64,000 bases of DNA from the NCBI GenBank assembly GCA_021513715.1, contig CP084167.1, forward strand, positions 192,001 to 256,000, read 5' to 3'. Shown piece after piece: positions 1,584-58,823 of the stretch. The notes beneath the pieces were generated by a model. That model worked only from the letters and a program-made list of their open reading frames with translations. It made no database searches and was not told where the DNA came from. The DNA comes from Candidatus Heimdallarchaeum endolithica. GTDB lineage: Archaea; Asgardarchaeota; Heimdallarchaeia; Heimdallarchaeales; Heimdallarchaeaceae. The translations under genes and the position numbers were made by a program. Position 1 is the first letter of the stretch; each line of letters starts with the position of its first letter.

Positions 1584-1968
1584 CCATGAGTTGAAATTTT
1601 ACGTAATTTCTTCAGGACTCTACCCAACCAATCAACAAACTTAGCGAAAGTTGTGAAGACTGGATTAAGAGAACATGAAAGACACAGTCTTAATTAAGTT
1701 CTCTAAGGGGTTCATCTCCTTATCCCGGGCACTCATAACTCCCAAAGGGAAGACCGGGTGTCGTAGGAATGAAACCTACGTCTTTAAGCATATAGCTCAA
1801 GACACTAGATAAATGAGAATTAAATATATAAAGATAGCTGAAAAGTTGTGACACTCCCTAATATCTTGTATGTATTCTTTATTTTTGCAAATGTGTTTCA
1901 GGTTGTTATTGGTATGATAACTCCACAAACTAAAAATTTAGTTTATTATGTAAAAAAGTATCTCATGG
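1584..1968. mobile_element. Non-autonomous MITE-like insertion with imperfect terminal inverted repeats, no target duplication and an internal structured RNA-like segment
   Basis: Ends CCATGAGttgaaattttacgtaat and (reverse complement) CCATGAGatacttttttacataat match 18/24; precise removal restores the host reading frame; no credible protein inside. Confidence 0.85.
1610..1803 (-). ncRNA. Putative structured ncRNA inside the 1584-1968 element
   Basis: Minus-strand TTTATATA (1825-1832) lies about 22 nt upstream of consecutive stem-loops: GTCTTGAGC/GCTT-A-AAGAC, GTAGG/CCTAC, CCCGG/CCGGG enclosing TCCC/GGGA, TAAGGAG/CCCCTTA, AGAGAAC/GTTCTCT enclosing AAGAC/GTCTT, AACTT/AAGTT. GC-richer than the genome; 3' end approximate. 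Confidence 0.6.
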
Positions 1969-16359: not shown

Positions 16360-17363
16360 AAGCATGTCCAAAAATTAATTTTTATTAATGTGGGGGTTTA
16401 TGTCGGAATTATGACTTACTTTCAGATCATAGACCCCCACAAAGTAAGAGAATTCATAATCATTAATGAACCTTTCCTTAAGAAACTGGTGAAAGAGGAA
16501 CCGAGAGAAAGTAAGAGAGGGAGAAAAAGAATAGCAGAAAGGTGGGTGATACTGGCTTTAGCAATTATTGCGAGAATAGAAGGAATAGCTTGGAGGAAGT
16601 TAGAGGAAAAGTTGTCTTTATGCGCTTTTTTGATAGAAGAGGGGTGGATGAAGAAGATTCCTTCCAAATCTACTTTTCATGCAGTGTGGAGAGCGACAGA
16701 AAGTAAGTTGCTGGAGCGGTGGATAATAGATTTAGGTAGGGAAATAGTGAGGAAAAAAGGCTTGAAATCTATGGCAGTGGACAGTTCAGGTTTTAAAATT
16801 CGTCAGGCTTCTGTTTGGCGTTTTCTCAAGTGGGCAAGAGGAGGACTAAAGAAAACCTCTAAACTTTTCTGGAAGATACACCTTATAGTTGGTTTACCCT
16901 CTCGAGCTATAGTCTCTTTAGCTCATTCTGCTAGTAACACTCACGATAGTAAAGTCTTCGGTTTGCTCTGGCAGAAACTTCCTTCTGCACTCTTGAGACC
17001 TTTCTTGCGATTTTATGGAGACTGTGCCTACTGGACAGAAAATATCGTGGGACTTCTAAAACAACATTCTTTCTTCCCCGTCATTCCTCCAAAAAGTAAT
17101 GCTCGTTATCCCTCTCCTCCTCCCCTCGGACCAATAATTCAAGCTCATCGTCTCTACCCTGGTCTGTATCGCCATAATCATCATCCCGAGTATCGTAGTA
17201 GTATTGAACACGTCTTTGGTCTCCTCAAACTCTCTCTTCCCCCAATCCTTGATCGTTTACCCTCCACCATCCTCTCTACCTTGTACAGTTCTCTCTTCTG
17301 TTACAACTACCTTTTACTCCTTCGGACCGTTTAGTTGGTGAAAAAGAATTTTTGGACATGCTT
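16360..17363 (+). mobile_element. Insertion sequence copy 1 (1004 bp; DDE_Tnp_1 clan, IS5/IS982-like)
   Basis: 17-bp TIR AAGCATGTCCAAAAATT/AATTTTTGGACATGCTT; 6-bp target duplication TTAAAA (16354-59, 17364-69). Confidence 0.95.
16390..17334 (+). CDS. DDE transposase (likely start ATG 16411)
   Basis: AVDSSG, KIHL, HDS, GDCAY, YRSSIEHVFGLLK catalytic motifs. Confidence 0.92.
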   Translation: MGVYVGIMTYFQIIDPHKVREFIIINEPFLKKLVKEEPRESKRGRKRIAERWVILALAIIARIEGIAWRKLEEKLSLCAFLIEEGWMKKIPSKSTFHAVWRATESKLLERWIIDLGREIVRKKGLKSMAVDSSGFKIRQASVWRFLKWARGGLKKTSKLFWKIHLIVGLPSRAIVSLAHSASNTHDSKVFGLLWQKLPSALLRPFLRFYGDCAYWTENIVGLLKQHSFFPVIPPKSNARYPSPPPLGPIIQAHRLYPGLYRHNHHPEYRSSIEHVFGLLKLSLPPILDRLPSTILSTLYSSLFCYNYLLLLRTV

Positions 17364-17625
17364 TTAAAAAAAAACATTTGAGAACGACTATAATTTAAGA
17401 ATAGCAAATTACTATTAAAATTGTTTTAAATATTTTTATATTTAATAGTTCTCTTTATTAAAGAAAGACGGGGTTTTATTATATATCTCTTTTTTCTACT
17501 ATTAGAAGTTTTTATTACTATAATAAATAAAAAGAGGAAAAAAGTTGTAAAAATTTCTCAATTTTTTATAACTTTCTGAGATAAAAATAATGCTTAAAAA
17601 TAGAGGGGATATTTAACCTATAATT

Positions 17626-27975: not shown

Positions 27976-28979
27976 AAGCATGTCCAAAAATTAATTTTTA
28001 TTAATGTGGGGGTTTATGTCGGAAGTATGAATTTCTTTCAGATCATAGACCCCCACAAAGCAAGAGAATTCATAATCATTAATGAACCTTTCCTTAAGAA
28101 ACTGGTGAAAGAGGAACCGAGAGAAAGCAAGAGAGGGAGAAAGAGAATAGCAGAAAGATGGGTGATACTGGCTTTAGCAATCATTGCTAGAATAGAAGGG
28201 ATAGCTTGGAGGAAGTTAGAGGAAAAGTTGTCTTTATGCGATTTTTTGATAGAAGAGGGGTGGATGAAGAAGATTCCTTCTAAATCTACTTTTCATGCAG
28301 TGTGGAGAGCGACAGAAAGTAAAATCTTAGAGCAGTGGATAATAGATTTAGGTAGGGAAATAGTGAGGAAAAAAGGCTTGAAAGCTATGGCAGTGGATAG
28401 TTCAGGGTTTAAAATCCGTCAAGCTTCTGTTTGGCGTTTTCTCAAATGGTCAAGAGGGACACTAAAGAAAACCTCTAAACTTTTCTGGAAGATACACCTT
28501 ATAGTTGGTTTACCCTCTCGAGCTATAGTCTCTCTCGCTCATTCTGCTAGTAACACTCACGATAGTAAAGTCTTCGGTTTACTCTGGCAGAAACTTCCTT
28601 CTGCACTCTTGAGACCTTTCTTGCGATTTTATGGAGACTGTGCCTACTGGACAGAAAATATCGTTGGACTTCTTAGCCAACATTCCTTTTTCCCTGTTAT
28701 TCCCCCAAAAAGTAATGCTCGTTATCCCTCTCCTCCTCCCCTCGGACCAATAGTTCAAGCTCATCGTCTCTACCCTGGTCTGTATCGTCGTAATCATCAT
28801 CCCGAGTATCGTAGTAGTATTGAACACGTCTTTGGTCTCCTTAAACTCTCTCTTCCCCCAATCCTTGATCGTTTACCCTCCACCATCCTCTCTACCTTGT
28901 ACAGTTCTCTTCTCTGTTACAACTACCTTTTACTCCTTCGGACCGTTTAGTTGGTGAAAAAGAATTTTTGGACATGCTT
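27976..28979 (+). mobile_element. Insertion sequence copy 2 (1004 bp, same family as 16360-17363)
   Basis: Same 17-bp TIRs; 6-bp target duplication ATACTA (27970-75, 28980-85). Confidence 0.95.
28006..28950 (+). CDS. DDE transposase (likely start ATG 28027)
   Basis: Same motifs as copy 1; about 14 amino-acid differences over 314 by manual count. Confidence 0.92.
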   Translation: MGVYVGSMNFFQIIDPHKAREFIIINEPFLKKLVKEEPRESKRGRKRIAERWVILALAIIARIEGIAWRKLEEKLSLCDFLIEEGWMKKIPSKSTFHAVWRATESKILEQWIIDLGREIVRKKGLKAMAVDSSGFKIRQASVWRFLKWSRGTLKKTSKLFWKIHLIVGLPSRAIVSLAHSASNTHDSKVFGLLWQKLPSALLRPFLRFYGDCAYWTENIVGLLSQHSFFPVIPPKSNARYPSPPPLGPIVQAHRLYPGLYRRNHHPEYRSSIEHVFGLLKLSLPPILDRLPSTILSTLYSSLLCYNYLLLLRTV

Positions 28980-29121
28980 ATACTAAATAAAAAACAATAT
29001 TCCTTTTAACAACTTCACCATCATCTTAATTTTTATTCATAATATCCACGTTTTTCTCAAAGATTGTTAGGAAAAAAGTGAATAATCTAAATTTCTATGA
29101 TTTATTTCTCAAAAACCTTTT

Positions 29122-46150: not shown

Positions 46151-46534
46151 CTAATTTTAAAGTGTGATTTAAACTATTTATATTTAACCTTAAGGTAAAT
46201 CTAAAATCAAATATTGTATTTTGAAAAAATTTTTAACGAGAGAACTTTCTTTTAAAGTATGAAAGCCCTTTTTCTAATTAATGCTAGTAAACAAGAAAAA
46301 GAAGAAATAAAAGAAAAGCTAAGGGAAGAAGTAGAAGCTATTTTTGGAGATGAACTTACAGAAGAAGAAAGAAAAAATGTTTTGAAAGAAGTAGAGATCA
46401 TCCTAGGAGGGAGGTTATCAGATGAAGAATTAAATAGTGTAAAAAAGTTAAAATTTCATCAGACTTTTGGAACTGGTGTAGATAGACATAATTTAAAAAT
46501 CTACAAACAGAAAAACATTATTCTCTGTAATAGC

Positions 46535-46876
46535 CATGAAGTGCTCTTTTGTACATTTTTGTTATACTAAAAACTAGGTGTTTAAATAGTGAAAAGACAT
46601 TAATAAATTAGAGAGGAAAGGAAAAGAGGAATACCAACTCTCTATTAGCCGGCACGGCGTGTCGGGGTAAAAAAACATGCGCATGAAGGCAGAATCAACG
46701 AATAGTTGAATATAATTTAACTTTCCCGTGTGAGCGGATGATTTTTTCATCCAGTTTCCACGGTGGAGGAGTTCTCAACCTTCTCCTCTGGCTCAATGAG
46801 TGTTTAGTTCTTTCTCTCGAATGAACTAACAGGAGAGTAAGATTTGTGCAAAAAATGTACAAAAATCGAGTTGATG
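46535..46876. mobile_element. Second non-autonomous insertion with inverted ends and internal structured RNA-like segment
   Basis: Left CATGAAGTGCTCTTTTGTACATTTTT vs right (reverse complement) CATCAACTCGATTTTTGTACATTTTT, including a perfect 14-bp TTTTGTACATTTTT; left end resembles the 1968 end of element 1; exact boundary uncertain by a few nt. Confidence 0.78.
46609..46840 (+). ncRNA. Putative structured ncRNA inside the second element
   Basis: TTTAAATA (46581-88) about 21 nt upstream of consecutive stems: TAGAGAG/CTCTCTA, CCGGCAC/GTGTCGG, TCAAC/GTTGA, CCGTG/CACGG enclosing GGATGA/TCATCC, GGAGGAG/CTCCTCT, TTAGTTC/GAACTAA. Confidence 0.6.
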
Positions 46877-46999
46877 ATAGAGTAATTAAACTTGTAGAAA
46901 ATATTAATAGGTTTGTTAGGAATGAAGAACCACTTAACAAAGTAAATTTGGACACAGGATATTAAAAAAGTTAATTAAGGTTAAATAAACTTAATAAAC

Positions 47000-50105: not shown

Positions 50106-53100
50106 ATGAAATTAAAAAGAAAATACCTTGTGTTTATTCTAATAGTAATGATCAGTATAAGTAGTAATTATTTTTTAGTGAATGGAGAAATAGATGATAA
50201 TTCAAAAGTTCAGGAAGAGATACTAGGTTATTTTCAAGCTTATGAATCTCTTGTTGATTTAGAAACAAGAGCATTATTAGATAGTCAAGGAAAATTACAT
50301 ATTTTTATTAAAATGGACTTAGAAAATCAATCTTTCACTATTTTTCATTTATTTGAGGGAAATTTATCAAAAGTTAAAACTGATTTGAGTTCAGGAACTA
50401 TTTTTAATGCTTTTAACATTGATGATAAAATTGTCTTATTCTATTCGTATCATGGTAATTTTGGACAATTCAATATTGACATGTATGTTTGGGAATCAAA
50501 CCAAAAAGAAAGCAATTCTCTAGTTTATCACTCAAGTTTTTTTGGAAATTATTTCATATATAATGTTCAACTAGTAGACAATGTTTTCTATCTACTATTT
50601 GCAGAACCGATGTTTGAATCAGCAATGGACGAGCATCCAACAACAAAATTCAAAAAATTAACTGTTTTTCTAAATGGAACTTCAACAACTAAAAACTGGT
50701 TTACTAATTTAGAATATAATGGAATTCAATCGTTTTTGATAGTTGATGGAGAGTTGGTTGCATTATACAAGTATATGTTCTTTCCAACAAGATTAATTGG
50801 TGTTTATATAATAAATGATGAACCATACTTAAGTAATTATATTACCTTCAATACTGACTATGATGTTTATTTATCGCTATTTAATCGTACTACGCTTAAT
50901 TTTGCACTAATTAAAGGATCAACTTTCTATACTCACAATTTTAAATTAAATGAAAGTTTATCATTTAAAAACTTCAGCGAATTTCAATTAGGAATGTATT
51001 CCTACTATGATTTTTATCATTATTCTTTTGATTCTTCAATTACATTTCTAATCAATCCAAATCCCCATTTACCACTCGACTCAAATAATACAAGAGGAGG
51101 CTTAATTACAGATTTTACGATTTTAAAATATAATGGGAAAAATATTTCTCAGCAGTTTATTGACATTCCTTTTACTTCCAACATCACAATTTTTGACTCT
51201 ACCTACATTAATTTTCAAACTCCTTCCACATTTTTAGTAAGTAGGACTCAAAGATTTACTGGTTCTCGTTTGATAAATAAAATAGTAATAGAACAAAACA
51301 TTTTTTCTTTGTTAATTTTTTCAAACACTAATATATCTACTAATTGGAATACAAAACCAGTAATTTACGATTTAACATTAGTTAACTTCTTTGAATATGT
51401 CTTTAAAATGCATTGGATTGAACTTACTGTTACATTTATCGTTATTATAATAGTAATAGCTATTTTCTATAAAAAAATGTTAAATCAAGCAAAAAAACTC
51501 TTTAAGTACTTATTAAGGCCAATAAAAACAGGAAAAAATAAATTTATTTTAATATTACTAAATTTATGGGTCTTTATTGTTAGTTCTCTAAGCCTACCCT
51601 TTGATTTATGGCGTTCAAATAAAAAGAGAGCAATAATAACAATATTAGGTTTATCAATTTTAGCGATGATAGTTTTTTCCTCTTCATCATTATTTTCACA
51701 TAAACAAAATATGATGATACAAAGATACTTAGAAGACGCTCATTTAGAAGAAGATGAAAAAGCCTCAGCTACCTTTTCAAGAATGCATAACGTTCTTTCA
51801 GCAAGATGGGGTAGAGTAAACGAATACTCTCCCTTCTATGAGAATTTTTCTTCAGCTGTTATGAACGAGATTCTTTCATCTATTGCTTTGCAGACTAAAG
51901 TTCTGAAAGATATAATTATTGATTCAGATTTTTCAATGCAAATGAGAATTTTATTCAAAAAGGATGCTGAAAGTTCAATTCAGAGCGTAGAATCATATTA
52001 TTCTCTTTCTAGCAACTACAAAAAAATTCTAGAAGAAATCTTGATTTCAGGCAGATTACCAGATAAAATAAATGAAATTATAATCGATGAAACTACTGCA
52101 ATAGCTTTTAACAAAACAGTCAATGATACTATAATCTTTGTTGGCGCAGATGTTTCTGTGGGAGGACTAAAAGAAAGAGTAAACATGACTATTGTAGGTA
52201 TATATGAAAAACCTACAGAACCCGCGCTTTTTAAAATGAGTAGAGATTTTGGTTTATCTTATGATCTTGTAAAAATGATATCACAATATATTGGAGCAAT
52301 AACCTTTAATGATTTTTATTTATCAAGTTTGAAAACTATGCCTGTTCAACATCTCAAATTTGATGGAACTATTCAATTTTTCTATGACTTCTCTTTGGTT
52401 AATTCTAAGAATATGGGACAACTAATAGAGGATTTTAACACCTTACAACCAGGCTATGATCACCCTGTTAATTTTGACTTAGGGGGTTCTTGGGTCATCT
52501 CAACTGAATTAAAATTAGTTTTATTGAGCTTGGTTCCTTCTTATTCATCTACCCAGTTTCTACTTGTATTATTGTCAATTCCTGTTCTCTATTTAGCTCT
52601 GTTCTTAATTTTTGAAACCAATGCCTTATTTGCAACAAGTTTTGATGAAGAAATAAAGATTCTTCGTTCTAAAGGACTATCTACTGCAAAAATAGTTTAT
52701 CTTAATACTGTTATGAAATTTGTAGAATCGCTCATTGCAACCTTTTTAGGTCTAGGAGAAGCAATCCTTATTATTCCTCTTCTTCTTAAATTAGACAAAT
52801 TTGTTTCTTTCAATTTAGATAGTATAATGCCTTCTTTTAAGAATTTACCTTTAATTTTCATAGTTTCATTCTTTGGATTGATAGTTATTACCTTACCTTT
52901 AACAATACGCATGGCTAAAATAAAGAAAGAGCAAATAAGAGATTATAACAAATTTGTCTCTTTCCTTAAGAAGGTAAAAATAGGTAACTACTTCATTATT
53001 GCTGTTGGAGGAGGAATAATTTATGGAGGATTTAAACTCTACCAAACTTTTAGTGAAAATCTCTCTTCGTCTGAGAACCAACTGATTAACATCTTTGTTT

Positions 53101-54383
53101 ATATTATTGGAATAGGAGTAATGATAACTTTATTTGGTTTAGGATTGATTTTAAAAGATTTTCACTCTTTTATTATGGCAGTTTTAAGCAAAACATTGTG
53201 GAAAATTAAAAAGAATATGTTTACATTCTCACTAGTTGAAGTAAAAACAGATATCTCATTATTTAATGATATTTTCTTAACTTACTTACTTTTAGTGGGA
53301 ATTGCTGTTCCTGCAATAGCAGCACCATTAACTATGCAAAATGGCATATTGGAAGATTCTTACTTTATGTCAGGATCTGATATGTACATAAACAATTACA
53401 ATAAGGTTAATTCTAGTATAAGCAACGAAATTGAAGCTCTCCCAGAAGTAGTAGATATTTGCAATGTTTCTCAAGTTGATGCAATGTTTGGAGGAAGACA
53501 GTTAAATTTACTAGTAATTCAAAATGCTTCAGACTTCTATAATACAGCATATAAACCTTCAGAAAGGTTTTTCAAAAATTGGGATGACATAATTCCTCAA
53601 TTGGATAATGAAAAAGAGATAATTGTTTCTAGTAATTTCAAGTTTTTCTTTGATATTAGTGAAATGAAATACCTATTCAACGATATTGAAATGAAGATAA
53701 TAGATGAGTTTGACTATTTCCCTATAATTTATCCTTATGGACCACGAGAATCAGGTGGTACACCTATGATTGTTCTTACAGAAAGCAACTATGAAAAAAT
53801 AGAAGAAAGTTTAACCATTTTTGGGATATTTGGTTATAGATTGTTAATAAATGTTGCAGACAAAACTGATATTGTCCAATTTTCTTCAAGTTTGGAAGAG
53901 AAATACAATCTAGAGATCATCAATGTAGTAGAAAAAGAACATGAAATTTACCAATCCAACCTTCCTTTTTATTCTTCTATAGTCTCAATATTTGTTTTTT
54001 CATTATTAATTTGTACCATTTCAATAATATTTACAAGTATGAGCAATCCTCTTAAGATATTACAGAGAAGAATGGGCAAACATGATATTCTTAAAAAGAT
54101 GGGTATTCCTAACAAACTTATAATTCAGATGAGTTCTTTTGAATTATTTATGATTGGAATACTTCCAGGTCTAATTGGTGGTACAGCGGTAGGTTTTACA
54201 ATCACTGAAATAATTCGCAGGGTGTTAAGAAGTCTCAGAGAGGAGATGTTACCCAATCCTGTTCAATTCCCACCTGTTATTGCTTTAATGATCTTTCTAG
54301 TTATTCCTGCTATGTTTTTCTCAATATTCTATATAACAATGAAAATGCAATTTGCAAGATATCAACCTATGAATTTGGAGTGA
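50106..54383 (+). CDS. Large FtsX/MacB-type ABC permease with N-terminal extracellular domain
   Basis: Signal peptide, beta-rich ectodomain, GRLPDKINEIII, EIKILRSKGLS and ILKKMGIP FtsX motifs. Confidence 0.85.
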   Translation: MKLKRKYLVFILIVMISISSNYFLVNGEIDDNSKVQEEILGYFQAYESLVDLETRALLDSQGKLHIFIKMDLENQSFTIFHLFEGNLSKVKTDLSSGTIFNAFNIDDKIVLFYSYHGNFGQFNIDMYVWESNQKESNSLVYHSSFFGNYFIYNVQLVDNVFYLLFAEPMFESAMDEHPTTKFKKLTVFLNGTSTTKNWFTNLEYNGIQSFLIVDGELVALYKYMFFPTRLIGVYIINDEPYLSNYITFNTDYDVYLSLFNRTTLNFALIKGSTFYTHNFKLNESLSFKNFSEFQLGMYSYYDFYHYSFDSSITFLINPNPHLPLDSNNTRGGLITDFTILKYNGKNISQQFIDIPFTSNITIFDSTYINFQTPSTFLVSRTQRFTGSRLINKIVIEQNIFSLLIFSNTNISTNWNTKPVIYDLTLVNFFEYVFKMHWIELTVTFIVIIIVIAIFYKKMLNQAKKLFKYLLRPIKTGKNKFILILLNLWVFIVSSLSLPFDLWRSNKKRAIITILGLSILAMIVFSSSSLFSHKQNMMIQRYLEDAHLEEDEKASATFSRMHNVLSARWGRVNEYSPFYENFSSAVMNEILSSIALQTKVLKDIIIDSDFSMQMRILFKKDAESSIQSVESYYSLSSNYKKILEEILISGRLPDKINEIIIDETTAIAFNKTVNDTIIFVGADVSVGGLKERVNMTIVGIYEKPTEPALFKMSRDFGLSYDLVKMISQYIGAITFNDFYLSSLKTMPVQHLKFDGTIQFFYDFSLVNSKNMGQLIEDFNTLQPGYDHPVNFDLGGSWVISTELKLVLLSLVPSYSSTQFLLVLLSIPVLYLALFLIFETNALFATSFDEEIKILRSKGLSTAKIVYLNTVMKFVESLIATFLGLGEAILIIPLLLKLDKFVSFNLDSIMPSFKNLPLIFIVSFFGLIVITLPLTIRMAKIKKEQIRDYNKFVSFLKKVKIGNYFIIAVGGGIIYGGFKLYQTFSENLSSSENQLINIFVYIIGIGVMITLFGLGLILKDFHSFIMAVLSKTLWKIKKNMFTFSLVEVKTDISLFNDIFLTYLLLVGIAVPAIAAPLTMQNGILEDSYFMSGSDMYINNYNKVNSSISNEIEALPEVVDICNVSQVDAMFGGRQLNLLVIQNASDFYNTAYKPSERFFKNWDDIIPQLDNEKEIIVSSNFKFFFDISEMKYLFNDIEMKIIDEFDYFPIIYPYGPRESGGTPMIVLTESNYEKIEESLTIFGIFGYRLLINVADKTDIVQFSSSLEEKYNLEIINVVEKEHEIYQSNLPFYSSIVSIFVFSLLICTISIIFTSMSNPLKILQRRMGKHDILKKMGIPNKLIIQMSSFELFMIGILPGLIGGTAVGFTITEIIRRVLRSLREEMLPNPVQFPPVIALMIFLVIPAMFFSIFYITMKMQFARYQPMNLE

Positions 54384-56122
54384 TAAGAATGATACAATGT
54401 ATTGATTTATTTAAAATTTATTTCGATCCTCATTCAGATTACAAGGTCGCTGCATTAAGAGGATTGGATCTATTTGTAGAAAAAGGTGATCTTGTAAGTA
54501 TAGTCGGTCCTTCAGGAGCAGGAAAAACTACATTAATCAAGATTTTGTCAGGATTAGAGGATATTACAGGAGGATCTGTTATTATTGATGAACACCACCT
54601 AGAAAAAATGTCTCAAAAACAACTTAGAGAGTTCAGATTTAGATACATTGGTTTGATTAATCAAAACATTAGTGACAACCTATTTTCTAATCTTTCTGTT
54701 GAAAAGAATCTAATAATCCACAAAAAGTTATTTTACATTCCAAGAGAACAAGCAAGAAAAGAAATCAGAGAAATTCTAAAACTATTAAATTTATATCACG
54801 TGCGTAACAACCTCGTCTCTCGTATTTCTGGAGGAGAAGCTATGCGCTTGTCCCTAGGTGCAGCTTTAGCTAAAAACCCTAAGTTTTTACTCCTTGATGA
54901 ACCTACAGGTCAATTGGATACAAAACATACTAAAGAGGTTATTAATACTATTAAAGATATTAACGAAAACACTGGAAAAACTATTGTAGTTGTGACACAT
55001 GATATACGCTTTAGAAACATATTCAAACACAGCTTTATTATTAGAGATGGAAGGTTAGTAGGAGTAAGCCAAGATATGGAAAAAGATAAACTTGAATTTA
55101 TGACTAGTTCTTCAACAAACAATAGGGCTTATTTAGACAAAAATAACCTTCTCAGAATACCAGATCAAATAAAAATGAAAACTAAACTTTATGATGTAGT
55201 TGAATTTGATGCTCATCCTGCTGGTTCTCTCGGTTTATTTTGGAATCCAGACATTGTAAATAGAGAAGAGATTTATAAAATTCTGAATAAGCCAGTTGAT
55301 GAAGCTATTAAAGAATCTCGAGAAATTTCATATGAAGAGATTGAAGGAATCATCAGTAGGAAATTTAACTTCACAGAGAGCGGAGAAAGCATTTTGCAAC
55401 TAAAGGGAGTATCAAAGGGATATCACTCTCCAGCAGGTTACAATCAAGTAATAAAAAACATTAATTTAGAAATTGAGAAGGGAGATCTCGTGATGATAAC
55501 AGGTCCCAGTGGAGTAGGAAAAACTACTCTCTTTAATTGTATAACAGGGTTAGTAAAAGCAGATGAAGGAGAGATAATCATTAATAATGTCTCACTTCAT
55601 GATAAAGATGAGTATGAAACCTCAATGTTCAGATTAAAAAATATTGCCTATATTACCCAGCATAACAATCTCTTTGAGCCTGTTACAGTTAAAGATAACC
55701 TTCTTGTTCCCTATTTGTTTTCTAAATTAAAGTATGATGAAGAATACTCACTAAATATGGTTGAGGAATGCCAAATAAAACATAAACTAGAAGCCTATCC
55801 TGATGAGCTTTCTGCAGGAGAAAAGCAGCGAGCTTCCTTATCACTTGCATTAACAAGAAAGACACCTATTCTAATAGGAGATGAACCAACGGCTAATTTA
55901 GATAGTGATTTAGCTAGAGCAATAATTGATGTTTTGATGGATGTAGCTGAAAAACTAAAAACAACCGTTATTATTTGTTCCCATGATCTCAGTTTGCTAA
56001 GACCAGGAATGAGACATATAGTCTTAGAAAAGGGCGGAATTCAGTCAGATAAGCGTATAACAAAGAAGGATTTGAAAGAAATAATAGAGTACTTCTTACA
56101 AGTAAAAATAAATGATAAATAA
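54380..56122 (+). CDS. ABC ATP-binding protein with two ATPase domains
   Basis: GPSGAGKT/ISGGE/LLDEPT and GPSGVGKT/LSAGE/IGDEPT; overlaps the permease stop. Confidence 0.93.
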   Translation: MIRMIQCIDLFKIYFDPHSDYKVAALRGLDLFVEKGDLVSIVGPSGAGKTTLIKILSGLEDITGGSVIIDEHHLEKMSQKQLREFRFRYIGLINQNISDNLFSNLSVEKNLIIHKKLFYIPREQARKEIREILKLLNLYHVRNNLVSRISGGEAMRLSLGAALAKNPKFLLLDEPTGQLDTKHTKEVINTIKDINENTGKTIVVVTHDIRFRNIFKHSFIIRDGRLVGVSQDMEKDKLEFMTSSSTNNRAYLDKNNLLRIPDQIKMKTKLYDVVEFDAHPAGSLGLFWNPDIVNREEIYKILNKPVDEAIKESREISYEEIEGIISRKFNFTESGESILQLKGVSKGYHSPAGYNQVIKNINLEIEKGDLVMITGPSGVGKTTLFNCITGLVKADEGEIIINNVSLHDKDEYETSMFRLKNIAYITQHNNLFEPVTVKDNLLVPYLFSKLKYDEEYSLNMVEECQIKHKLEAYPDELSAGEKQRASLSLALTRKTPILIGDEPTANLDSDLARAIIDVLMDVAEKLKTTVIICSHDLSLLRPGMRHIVLEKGGIQSDKRITKKDLKEIIEYFLQVKINDK

Positions 56123-56193
56123 TCATCTTTTTACTTTTTTATCGATAGAAGAAATAGTTTAAAATAGACAACTGATTCTTTCTATCGAACGAA

Positions 56194-57732
56194 ATGAAAC
56201 AAACTTTAGAACTATATTTTGTTACAAGCGGAGAATTACCTAAAGAGAGTATAGAAGATTTAAAACAGTTTATTTTGAAATATGAGCAAGATCTTAATTC
56301 TAAGCGCCCTAAAGGAAAATTCAACATTGAACTTTCCGAGATAAAAGATAAGAAAATATTTCTGTTACTCAATTCAACAGAATCATATGCTCCACACACT
56401 ATTGTTTTACGAATGAGAAAACAGTTAGCTCAAGAGATAGGTAAGAAATACAAAATTGGTCTAAGAGGATTTAAATTTACTAAATATCAAATAGAGAAAA
56501 AACTTAAACTTGAACCAAAGAGAGAATTTACTTTGCCTTTAACCTCAAAACTGGATTTTTTCAAGAAAGAAGATGAACCTTGGGTAAGAATAGAAATAGA
56601 CCCTGAAATTGAAGAGGATTTTGTTGAAAAAGGAGCAATAGAACGAATATTAAGAAGAATAAATGATAAAATATCAAAAGATTATCATGGAGCCAAAAAA
56701 GAACACCATACTGTTGCTTGGTACTCTGGAGAAAAAAATTTGCTAACTTCTAAGAATCCTACAAAAATTCTCGAAAAAGAAGGATGGATTAAAAGAACAA
56801 ATTATAGAAATCAATGGATTTTAACTCCCTCTATCACTGCAGTCGTTGAAGCGATAAAGAAAATAATGGTTGACCACATATATACTCCACTTAATTATCA
56901 GAAAATGATGATACCTAAACTGGTTGACTGGTCTATATGGCTTCGCTCTGGACATGCAGAAGGTATGTTTCAAGGGGGTTTTGAACCTTACTTTGTTGTT
57001 CAACCAAAAAGCGCCAGCCCAGAATATTTTGAGGAAATAGCTGACTATATAACAATAACAAAAACAATTCCTGAAGATAAACTATACGAAAAAATTACGC
57101 CCCCAATTGGAGGATTATCATATGCTCAATGTCCACCTTTTTGGGCTTGGCTTCAAGGAAAAACAATTGCAAAAGATAGCTTACCAATCCTAGTTTATGA
57201 TTGGAGTGGACCAACATATAGATACGAATCTGGTTCTGCTTATGGTTTTGAAAGAGTAGACGAATTGCACAGAATTGAAACTCTGTTTATTGGCACTCCT
57301 AAGCAAGTAAAAGAAGTGGCAACTGAAACAAGAAAGAAATTGAGAGAAGTTTTTGATAAAATCTTTGATTTAGAAGTAAGAGAAGCAAAAGTGATGCCTT
57401 GGTGGTTAGAACAATCTGCAAAAGATGAAGATGAAGAAGAAGATATGCTTGTTGGTACTATCGATTTTGAAGCTTATATGCCTTATAGGGGTTCAAGAGA
57501 TGAAAGTGAATGGCTAGAAATCCAGAATATATCAATTATAGGAGACAAATATCCAAGAGGTTTTAGTGTAAAAACTGAAGGAGGAAAAGATCTTTGGTCA
57601 GGTTGTGGCGGAGGAAGCTTTGAGCGATTTATCACTGCCTTTGTTTCTCAAAAAGGAATAAAAATTGATGAATGGCCTGAACCCTTCCTTAAATATTTAG
57701 ATAATATCCCCGAACCTCCCAAATTCCTTTAA
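56194..57732 (+). CDS. serS: Serine--tRNA ligase, methanogen-type (type 2)
   Basis: Long N-terminal domain; YAQCPPF, SGPTYRYE...ERVDELHRIE, WLEIQN, WSGC.G (Cys/Glu/Cys Zn ligands of type-2 SerRS). Confidence 0.9.
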   Translation: MKQTLELYFVTSGELPKESIEDLKQFILKYEQDLNSKRPKGKFNIELSEIKDKKIFLLLNSTESYAPHTIVLRMRKQLAQEIGKKYKIGLRGFKFTKYQIEKKLKLEPKREFTLPLTSKLDFFKKEDEPWVRIEIDPEIEEDFVEKGAIERILRRINDKISKDYHGAKKEHHTVAWYSGEKNLLTSKNPTKILEKEGWIKRTNYRNQWILTPSITAVVEAIKKIMVDHIYTPLNYQKMMIPKLVDWSIWLRSGHAEGMFQGGFEPYFVVQPKSASPEYFEEIADYITITKTIPEDKLYEKITPPIGGLSYAQCPPFWAWLQGKTIAKDSLPILVYDWSGPTYRYESGSAYGFERVDELHRIETLFIGTPKQVKEVATETRKKLREVFDKIFDLEVREAKVMPWWLEQSAKDEDEEEDMLVGTIDFEAYMPYRGSRDESEWLEIQNISIIGDKYPRGFSVKTEGGKDLWSGCGGGSFERFITAFVSQKGIKIDEWPEPFLKYLDNIPEPPKFL

Positions 57733-57770
57733 CATTCATTTTTTTCTTTTTTTATCAAAAATAATTTATA

Positions 57771-58823
57771 TTGCTTGTTCAAATAATATTTGAAATGAAA
57801 AAAGTAATTGATTTGCGTTCTGACACCTTAACTTTACCGCCTAAAGAGATGTTAGAAACAATTTTAACAGCTAAATTAGGCGATGATGTTTGGAGAGAAG
57901 ATCCTACTGTTCAAGAATTGGAAGCTTTAGCAGCTAAAAAATTAGGTAAACAAGCAGGGTTATTGGTTACTAGTGGAACCCAAGGAAATTTAGTTTCAGA
58001 GATGACTCATTTAAACAAAGGAGAAGGAATAATTTTAGAGGAAGAAAGCCACATCTACTTGTACGAAGCTGGTGGTATAGCATCAATAGTCGGAGCTTTA
58101 CCTTATTTGATCAAAGGAGAAAACGGTTTAATGGATGTTAAAGACATTGAAGCGATTCTTTCTAGACCGTATAATGTTCATTTTGCTGACCCTAAATTAG
58201 TTTGCATTGAAAATACTCACAATAGAGGGGGAGGAAGAGTTATTCCTAAATCAAACATGGACGAAATAGCAAAAATGGCTCATGAATATGATGTTCCTGT
58301 ACATATTGATGGAGCTAGATTATTTAATGCTTCTGTGGCATTAAATATTTCTCCTGCAAAACTAGTAGAACATGCAGATTCAATTCAGATTTGTCTAAGT
58401 AAAGGACTTGCATGCCCAATTGGTTCAATAATTGTAGGAACAGAAGAGTTCATAGAAAAAGCTAGAAAAAATAGAAAAAGGGTAGGTGGAGGAATGAGAC
58501 AAGCAGGGGTTATTGCTGCTCCAGGAATATATGCTCTTACTCATATGATAGATAGATTAAAAGAGGATCATAAACATGCTAAGATGATAGAAAAAGTTCT
58601 TAAAGAAAAGGAGGATATAATTGTCAAACCTGTGGATACAAATATCGTAATTATTGACCTCTCAAAGTCAGAATGGAGTGCAGAAACTTTAAGTAAAGAA
58701 CTAGAAAAACAAGGAATTTTGGTTACACAAATGGGAACCAAATTAATTCGTTTTGTAACTCACTTTAATATAAATAGAGAAGATATTGAAAATGTTATAA
58801 AAACTATCTCAGAGGTTTTTTAA
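57771..58823 (+). CDS. ltaE: Low-specificity L-threonine aldolase (likely start MKKVIDLR near 57795)
   Basis: DLRSDT, GDDV..EDPT, SGTQGN, ENTHN, HIDGARLFNA, CLSKGL, GGGMRQAG. Confidence 0.95.
   Translation: MLVQIIFEMKKVIDLRSDTLTLPPKEMLETILTAKLGDDVWREDPTVQELEALAAKKLGKQAGLLVTSGTQGNLVSEMTHLNKGEGIILEEESHIYLYEAGGIASIVGALPYLIKGENGLMDVKDIEAILSRPYNVHFADPKLVCIENTHNRGGGRVIPKSNMDEIAKMAHEYDVPVHIDGARLFNASVALNISPAKLVEHADSIQICLSKGLACPIGSIIVGTEEFIEKARKNRKRVGGGMRQAGVIAAPGIYALTHMIDRLKEDHKHAKMIEKVLKEKEDIIVKPVDTNIVIIDLSKSEWSAETLSKELEKQGILVTQMGTKLIRFVTHFNINREDIENVIKTISEVF

Follow-up and report, generated by a model that had tools for sequence, protein, structure and literature searches.

The window analyzed here is a stretch of 64,000 nucleotides from the genome of Candidatus Heimdallarchaeum endolithica, a single contig of 3.33 Mb that is 92.6% complete. 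Within it, a 2-hydroxyacid dehydrogenase gene is interrupted by an insert of 342 bases without a protein gene (46535–46876), and the boundaries that a first-pass annotation had assigned to this insert were borne out by our analysis. The features are as follows:

1585–1967, minus strand: sister miniature E1, which has the same end class, carries the omegaRNA of another TnpB lineage, and splits a tauE gene (end comparison, covariance model, shared motifs)
16363–17367 and 27995–28999 (approximate): two IS5-like DDE copies, with about 33 copies in the genome, AAGCATGTCC tips, and 6–7-bp AT-rich duplications
46259–46537, plus strand: 5′ remnant of the 2-hydroxyacid dehydrogenase gene, to codons N-S-H (Pfam PF00389; intact 330-aa orthologue in a sister genome)
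46535–46538, plus strand: left junction C/AT/G, with C from the target, AT as shared core, and G as first element base (empty sites of sister genomes, intact metagenome allele)
46547–46560, plus strand: left subterminal motif with a TTTTGTACA core, in a perfect 14-nt inverted repeat; kept in the tnpB parents and in other genera
46581–46588, plus strand: archaeal TATA-like box TTTAAATA, recognized by sequence; an identical motif lies upstream of tnpB in full elements
46609–46720, plus strand: miniature-specific 5′ leader with two hairpins, the conserved one at 46649–46665 (comparison of miniatures and tnpB parents)
46721–46875, plus strand: TnpB omegaRNA scaffold with stems 46726–46763 and 46765–46786, a closing stem, and a terminal hairpin (homology to 3′ ends of tnpB elements, covariation, covariance model)
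46775–46779, plus strand: pseudoknot strand TCAAC, with its partner GTTGA at 46870–46874 (96% of cells paired; compensatory changes in 3/5 pairs)
46851–46864, plus strand: right subterminal motif, the inverted copy of the left motif (perfect 14-nt inverted repeat)
46873–46876, plus strand: right junction G/AT/G, with G from the element, the AT core as last two scaffold bases, and the final G from the target
46876–46892, plus strand: predicted guide, about 16–17 nt of right flank, as expected from TnpB biology (bioRxiv 10.1101/2023.08.09.552727)
46876–46965, plus strand: 3′ remnant of the same dehydrogenase gene; the 621 bp between two CATG sites are absent

In a sister genome of the same genus, the dehydrogenase is intact with 330 aa, and an intact allele and the second CATG site were also seen in sediment and vent metagenome contigs (the second CATG in contig X3). 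The element occupies the place of the 621 bp that extend from a CATG in the N-S-H codons to a CATG in the H-D-R codons, and the window copy carries an adjacent deletion reaching this second CATG. The element itself is real, multicopy, and mobile as a unit. The genome carries 8 short copies; there are six near-identical relatives of 354–357 bp at about 80% identity, one older copy that is truncated by an IS5-like element, and fragments. Near-identical copies at other flanks, with identical boundaries, are present in vent and sediment metagenome contigs. The first-pass annotation had proposed a family of elements and had named a lack of further copies as evidence to the contrary; many copies were found. 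Its stable hairpin-rich segment (plus-strand fold, z = -3.5) and its TATA motif, at 46581–46588, were likewise recovered, and an RNA start is predicted from the sequence near 46608–46612. The postulated inverted ends held in part: there is a perfect 14-nt subterminal inverted repeat (46547–46560/46851–46864), but the tips are not true terminal repeats, as they share only AT, and comparison with empty sites shows that the outer C and G are supplied by the target. The left subterminal motif is presumed to be a binding site of the mobiliser.

AT is contained in both junctions of 39 elements from three end-related groups. Three empty sites in a sister genome, for which the junctions are unequal, read GATA, CATT, and CATT, with the first base coming from the left junction and the last base from the right junction. 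The overlap is therefore exactly AT, whether as a recombination core or as a duplication of 2 bp, and the unequal junctions together with the empty sites rule out models with 4-bp or 3-bp duplications. On the 3′ side of the insertion, the target base is under constraint, being G in 31/39. The bases adjoining the right-hand AT vary freely between elements, unlike the tips of DDE transposons, which are conserved. CATG-ended elements target each other: E1 fragments start at internal CATG sites (G000 1375194 and 1184271), and a tnpB element sits within an E1 copy (G001 2602597–2602747). Two insertions (L417, G002 C27:9617–9654, and G000 1568692) adjoin host sequence similar to a half site, a hint that att-like targets are preferred.

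The last 155 nt of the element correspond to the omegaRNA that three tnpB-only elements of this genome carry, and both ends are common to them as well. Partial matches to the 3′ half fall at the ends of tnpB genes for 445–452-aa proteins (NCBIfam guided_TnpB), and these tnpB elements measure 1.5–1.6 kb, agree with the window element at both ends, and contain no second gene. The 445-aa TnpB lineage has three copies in the genome, and its D-E-D catalytic triad is intact by sequence. An alignment of 16 right ends, drawn from both tnpB elements and miniatures and spanning three genera, supports four helices plus a pseudoknot that connects a hairpin loop to the last element bases. On this alignment, on which we also drew the structure, 93.6% of cells are paired and 16/29 pairs show two-sided changes, counts that derive from related sequences and are not probabilities; none of 500 shuffles was as high, and slid structures were 40–50% paired. 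The pseudoknot occurs as TCAAC/GTTGA, TCGAC/GTCGA, and TAGTC/GACTA within the alignment and as TCGGC/GCCGA and TCACC/GGTGA outside it, which makes five forms across lineages, and near-identical metagenome copies lengthen it to 6 bp. The covariance model found two distant tnpB loci that were absent from its building set (E 1e-14 and 5e-12), and its matches lie in 9 of 81 genomes of the class, all of them inside the family; Rfam gave no match at gathering threshold or with a useful E-value for either miniature or for the longer leader. A pseudoknot beside the guide is a conserved and required core of TnpB guide RNAs (bioRxiv 10.1101/2023.08.09.552727). The homology to tnpB 3′ ends and the covarying pseudoknot therefore identify 46721–46875 as the scaffold, which abuts the right end and whose hairpin loop pairs with the bases adjoining the guide; by analogy, we infer that the guide is the right flank of the element.

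The first-pass annotation had pointed to internal CATGAAG and AGTTGA matches to the ends, and the recognition that these would imply is not supported. CATGAAG occurs in 12.6%, AGTTGA in 50%, and both in 5% of dinucleotide shuffles, and at the internal CATGAAG and ATCAAC, six sibling copies read CATAAAG and ATCAAAG. A supposed match to the host flanks fares no better, since the interior motif stays the same in copies whose flanks are unrelated. What does match the right end in a meaningful way is the loop TCAAC (46775–46779), which pairs with GTTGA (46870–46874). We therefore give hardly any credence to an IS110/IS1111-type bridge-RNA element, whose RNA would pair with its own ends and with the target: such short internal matches, the subterminal inverted repeats, and the 2-bp core would suit it, but the matches do not exceed chance and are not conserved, no RNA loops covary with target and donor, the interior does not depend on the flanks, the RNA has its homologues at tnpB 3′ ends, and the genome (92.6% complete, one contig) has no PF02371 match.

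In conclusion, the element is mobile as a unit, is joined to its target via the shared AT in C/AT/G, and has the omegaRNA of the 445-aa TnpB lineage as its 3′ 155 nt. We regard it, with a probability of about 0.85, as a non-autonomous, protein-free derivative of a Heimdallarchaeia tnpB-only transposon that carries promoter-like sequence and a TnpB guide RNA.

The 5′ leader (46609–46720) is not found in the tnpB parents and has no significant Rfam match. The leader and its conserved hairpin recur in miniatures of two other genera, where the leaders are longer and include an extra GC-rich domain that has been lost in the Heimdallarchaeum copies. By eye, the topology does not fit an HDV-type ribozyme. 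TnpB normally trims its guide from the tnpB mRNA (PMC10278001), and the chances seem even that the leader is a stabilizing or processing element that replaces this mRNA. A leader specific to miniatures and conserved across three genera is new.

The target sites suggest how the guide could be used. In 9 of 10 insertions of the window element's family, the base 5′ of CAT is T (p = 4e-4; background 34%), and in this family the own end reads TGAT while insertion sites read TCAT. In the E1 and 500-aa-TnpB groups, whose own end reads TCAT, T precedes in only 1/29 (p = 9e-5; background 34%). The IS607 TnpB of CboIStron discriminates TGGG from TCGG at position -3 (10.1101/2023.11.20.567912), and the TCAT/TGAT pattern parallels this discrimination between TAM and self. 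In the proposed mechanism, the TATA box would drive an RNA of leader, scaffold, and flank, which TnpB would load in trans; the ribonucleoprotein would cut the empty site (TAM 5′-TCAT plus right flank) and spare the occupied site (TGAT), and copies would be kept or restored by homologous recombination after cutting of the empty site. The window copy is preceded by CCAT and not TCAT, which differs synonymously from the sister genome; TnpB may therefore leave the empty site of this copy uncut and the copy unprotected. This missing TAM, and the loss of part of the leader in Heimdallarchaeum copies, would be expected of a decayed passenger, whose RNA would be left over from the parent and no longer used by TnpB. 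We consider this improbable, as compensatory changes preserve the stems and the pseudoknot in the miniatures of three genera, the pseudoknot is lengthened to 6 bp in near-identical wild copies, and the leader is conserved and miniature-specific.

The sister miniature E1, for which 16 complete copies were tabulated, interrupts a tauE gene whose frame is restored on removing E1 plus one CATG. As had been claimed, its ends are related to those of the window element and the interiors have no primary similarity. No fold common to the two RNAs was detected: the covariance model of the window element's RNA misses E1 at E ≤ 1, E1 shares motifs and an end with the 3′ regions of genes for 520–560-aa TnpB proteins in related genomes, and the two interiors are the guides of different TnpB lineages. 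The postulated class of protein-free elements with a promoter and a structured RNA as only cargo is thus correct in that the elements are protein-free, mobile, of one end class, and equipped with promoter-like sequence and structured RNA, but they are not free-standing, as tnpB-only parents exist. In a TnpB tree, the CATG-type lineages fall in well-supported clades; we claim no order of events, since support at the deep nodes is low and our filter removed one lineage.

Further elements with such ends were observed. A locus at G000 1755723–1757599 and 12 similar loci (L003, L004, L006) are tnpB-only elements of 1.8–1.9 kb with CATG/AT ends, whose TnpB of about 500 aa has a rearranged site: the glutamate that is canonical in RuvC-II is absent (VVVGYPK), and a glutamate precedes the zinc finger. 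Another TnpB lineage (424 aa) has CATG-type ends at G000 598111–599493 (L005), and families f5 and f6 (L047, L048, L051, L302–L327) comprise relatives that are CATG-ended, bear subterminal palindromes of the TTTGTCTGACAA type, and reach up to 35 end matches per genome. In a comparison of the sister genomes (G000 2833124–2834727 versus G001 L012 and L014), two tnpB elements in opposite orientation have exchanged flanks, which points to an inversion of about 17 kb.

Protein-free omegaRNA elements are known as PATE-like elements from IS200/IS605 (Meers et al., bioRxiv 10.1101/2023.03.14.532601). Like these, the window element has no protein gene, keeps both ends of its tnpB relatives, has its omegaRNA at the right end, and needs TnpB and a transposase in trans; unlike these, it has its own conserved 5′ leader, and it has symmetric subterminal inverted repeats with an AT core in place of hairpin ends that are read by Y1 TnpA. 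That omegaRNA-only PATEs exist, and that the genome contains one Y1 tnpA–tnpB element, could point to a classical Y1 (IS200/IS605) PATE moved by this single Y1 TnpA. This is very doubtful, as the Y1 element has other ends and shares no asymmetric hairpin ends with the window element, the left end of the window copy is without a hairpin, and the constraint on the 3′ target base (G in 31/39) is not required by peel-and-paste. The IS607 family (IS607, IS1535, ISXfa1, CboIStron; PMC6188088, 10.1101/2023.08.09.552727, 10.1101/2023.11.20.567912) also has a 2-bp core in both ends and the target without a longer duplication, a scaffold that ends with the core, repeated short subterminal motifs, and a difference at -3 between the TAM and the own end. 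However, the IS607 core is GG and not AT, its motifs lie at different distances from the two ends while they are equidistant here, and neither the copies nor the genome contain a MerR-resolvase TnpA. DDE-associated, aCas1-associated, and solo TnpB elements (Altae-Tran et al., PMC10691335) share the inverted ends around tnpB and the occurrence in Asgard archaea, and the solo elements also the mobilization in trans, but here there is no linked DDE or aCas1 gene and no longer target duplication. In its workings the element resembles a guide-only element of the PATE type that follows IS607-like rules at the junction and the TAM, and the defining features (hairpin ends; TnpA) place it outside both families. 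As far as literature searches of incomplete coverage reach, the end system matches no described family; they returned no paper joining TnpB, Asgard archaea, and such ends.

As to the mobilizing enzyme, no transposase gene lies inside any CATG-ended element examined. The 2-bp AT overlap fits a 2-bp target duplication by a DDE enzyme equally well, and an IS630-like or other DDE transposase, duplicating the AT of CATG, could move the same omegaRNA miniature. In its favor, the inverted ends are symmetric and the target is palindromic, TnpB has been described with DDE transposases and inverted repeats (PMC10691335), and DDE elements are abundant in the genome. We nevertheless consider this rather unlikely, since the tips of the element are variable, joined-end sites are intact palindromes on a virus (see below), and the inspected ends differ, those of the resident DDE families other than the IS5-like element being judged from repeat borders only. 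The IS5-like element (16390 and 28006 in the window) is rejected as mobiliser by its other tips (AAGCATGTCC) and its 6–7-bp duplications. A 150-bp miniature repeat with TAGTACTTCCG-type ends (G000 2525168–2525325 and about 19 copies) is probably related to a 387-aa DDE element.

The variable tips and the symmetric motif at a fixed distance moderately favor a serine-type exchange at AT over a DDE reaction, and we lean slightly toward excision and integration in trans by an enzyme of the serine recombinase type, which would act via the two subterminal TGTACA motifs, with strand exchange at AT and a circle. Candidates for this enzyme were searched for in several ways. No IS607-type TnpA exceeded the family cut-off in the genome, and no serine TnpA with an N-terminal DNA-binding domain was found in any element with these ends in the genomes searched. 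The IS607 TnpA loci of relatives have ends that differ from those of the window element, and one such locus, from another family, combines a T/TA-type junction with ends that are unrelated. In several family genomes (L279–L283), an IS607 TnpA gene is followed by unusually long partner ORFs (640–660 aa). Two chromosomal serine recombinase genes of the resolvase family (240–250 aa; G000 316731–317450 and 405351–406154) show conserved vertical synteny across the family; never seen beside tnpB or inside CATG ends, they are unsupported candidates. Only canonical Cas1 was found in the genome, which discards aCas1, and four metagenome contig sets contained no circle joint of the element ends.

A viral contig (L380, IMGVR_UViG_3300021494_000002) contains six TGTACA-11-CATG-11-TGTACA sites within 7.4 kb (L380:1127–8537; G306 50886–58296) and none elsewhere in its 74.7 kb; the register of these sites also results when the right end of the element is joined to its left end at AT. 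The genes that the sites separate, accessory ones flanked by the early and the structural module, comprise an E1/ThiF-like, ubiquitin-like, and JAB set as well as small ORFs. In the last two sites, the halves that face each other are exact inverted copies. The same virus is also present in L425. A related virus (L423) has a similar GTAC-CATG-GTAC site in the same place, after the same orphan gene and with different cargo next to it, and its sample also holds a Heimdallarchaeum tnpB element. Two other viral matches (L151/L152) were attributed to chance. The orphan gene (P0118/P0119, 328 aa, L380:8554–9564, minus strand) adjoins the site array. Residues 60–170 of P0118 have a resolvase-like order of strands and helices in a model with a pLDDT of 66 from two sequences, and their comparison with the Sin recombinase 5c31 is within noise (Z 4.1, rmsd 3.7, 80 residues, rank 49). 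P0118 has no significant Foldseek match and no relative in the window's genome, and the viral contig, which is 53% complete, has no match to the Resolvase Pfam. Viral sites in joined-end register beside an orphan gene are new here, and the array is cassette-like; the sites could instead be operators. As a tentative and rather speculative extension, the CATG/AT-core ends may be attachment sites of an undescribed integron-like cassette system of Asgard viruses, in which a divergent serine recombinase of virus or host chains gene cassettes via TGTACA-11-CATG-11-TGTACA sites, and whose sites were adopted by several unrelated TnpB lineages and their guide-only miniatures.

Guide-only miniatures were already known, and the window insert alone is a modest addition. 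Together with its relatives, it offers a naturally occurring set of TnpB proteins for which TAMs are predicted (TCAT versus non-T-CAT) and whose RNAs are backed by covariation. The source organisms are close prokaryotic relatives of eukaryotes, and the placement of tnpB within inverted-repeat elements resembles the Fanzor arrangement. The viral site array is a concrete lead toward the missing mobiliser, and if the cassette model is true, TnpB lineages and guide-only miniatures would move without ever carrying a transposase.
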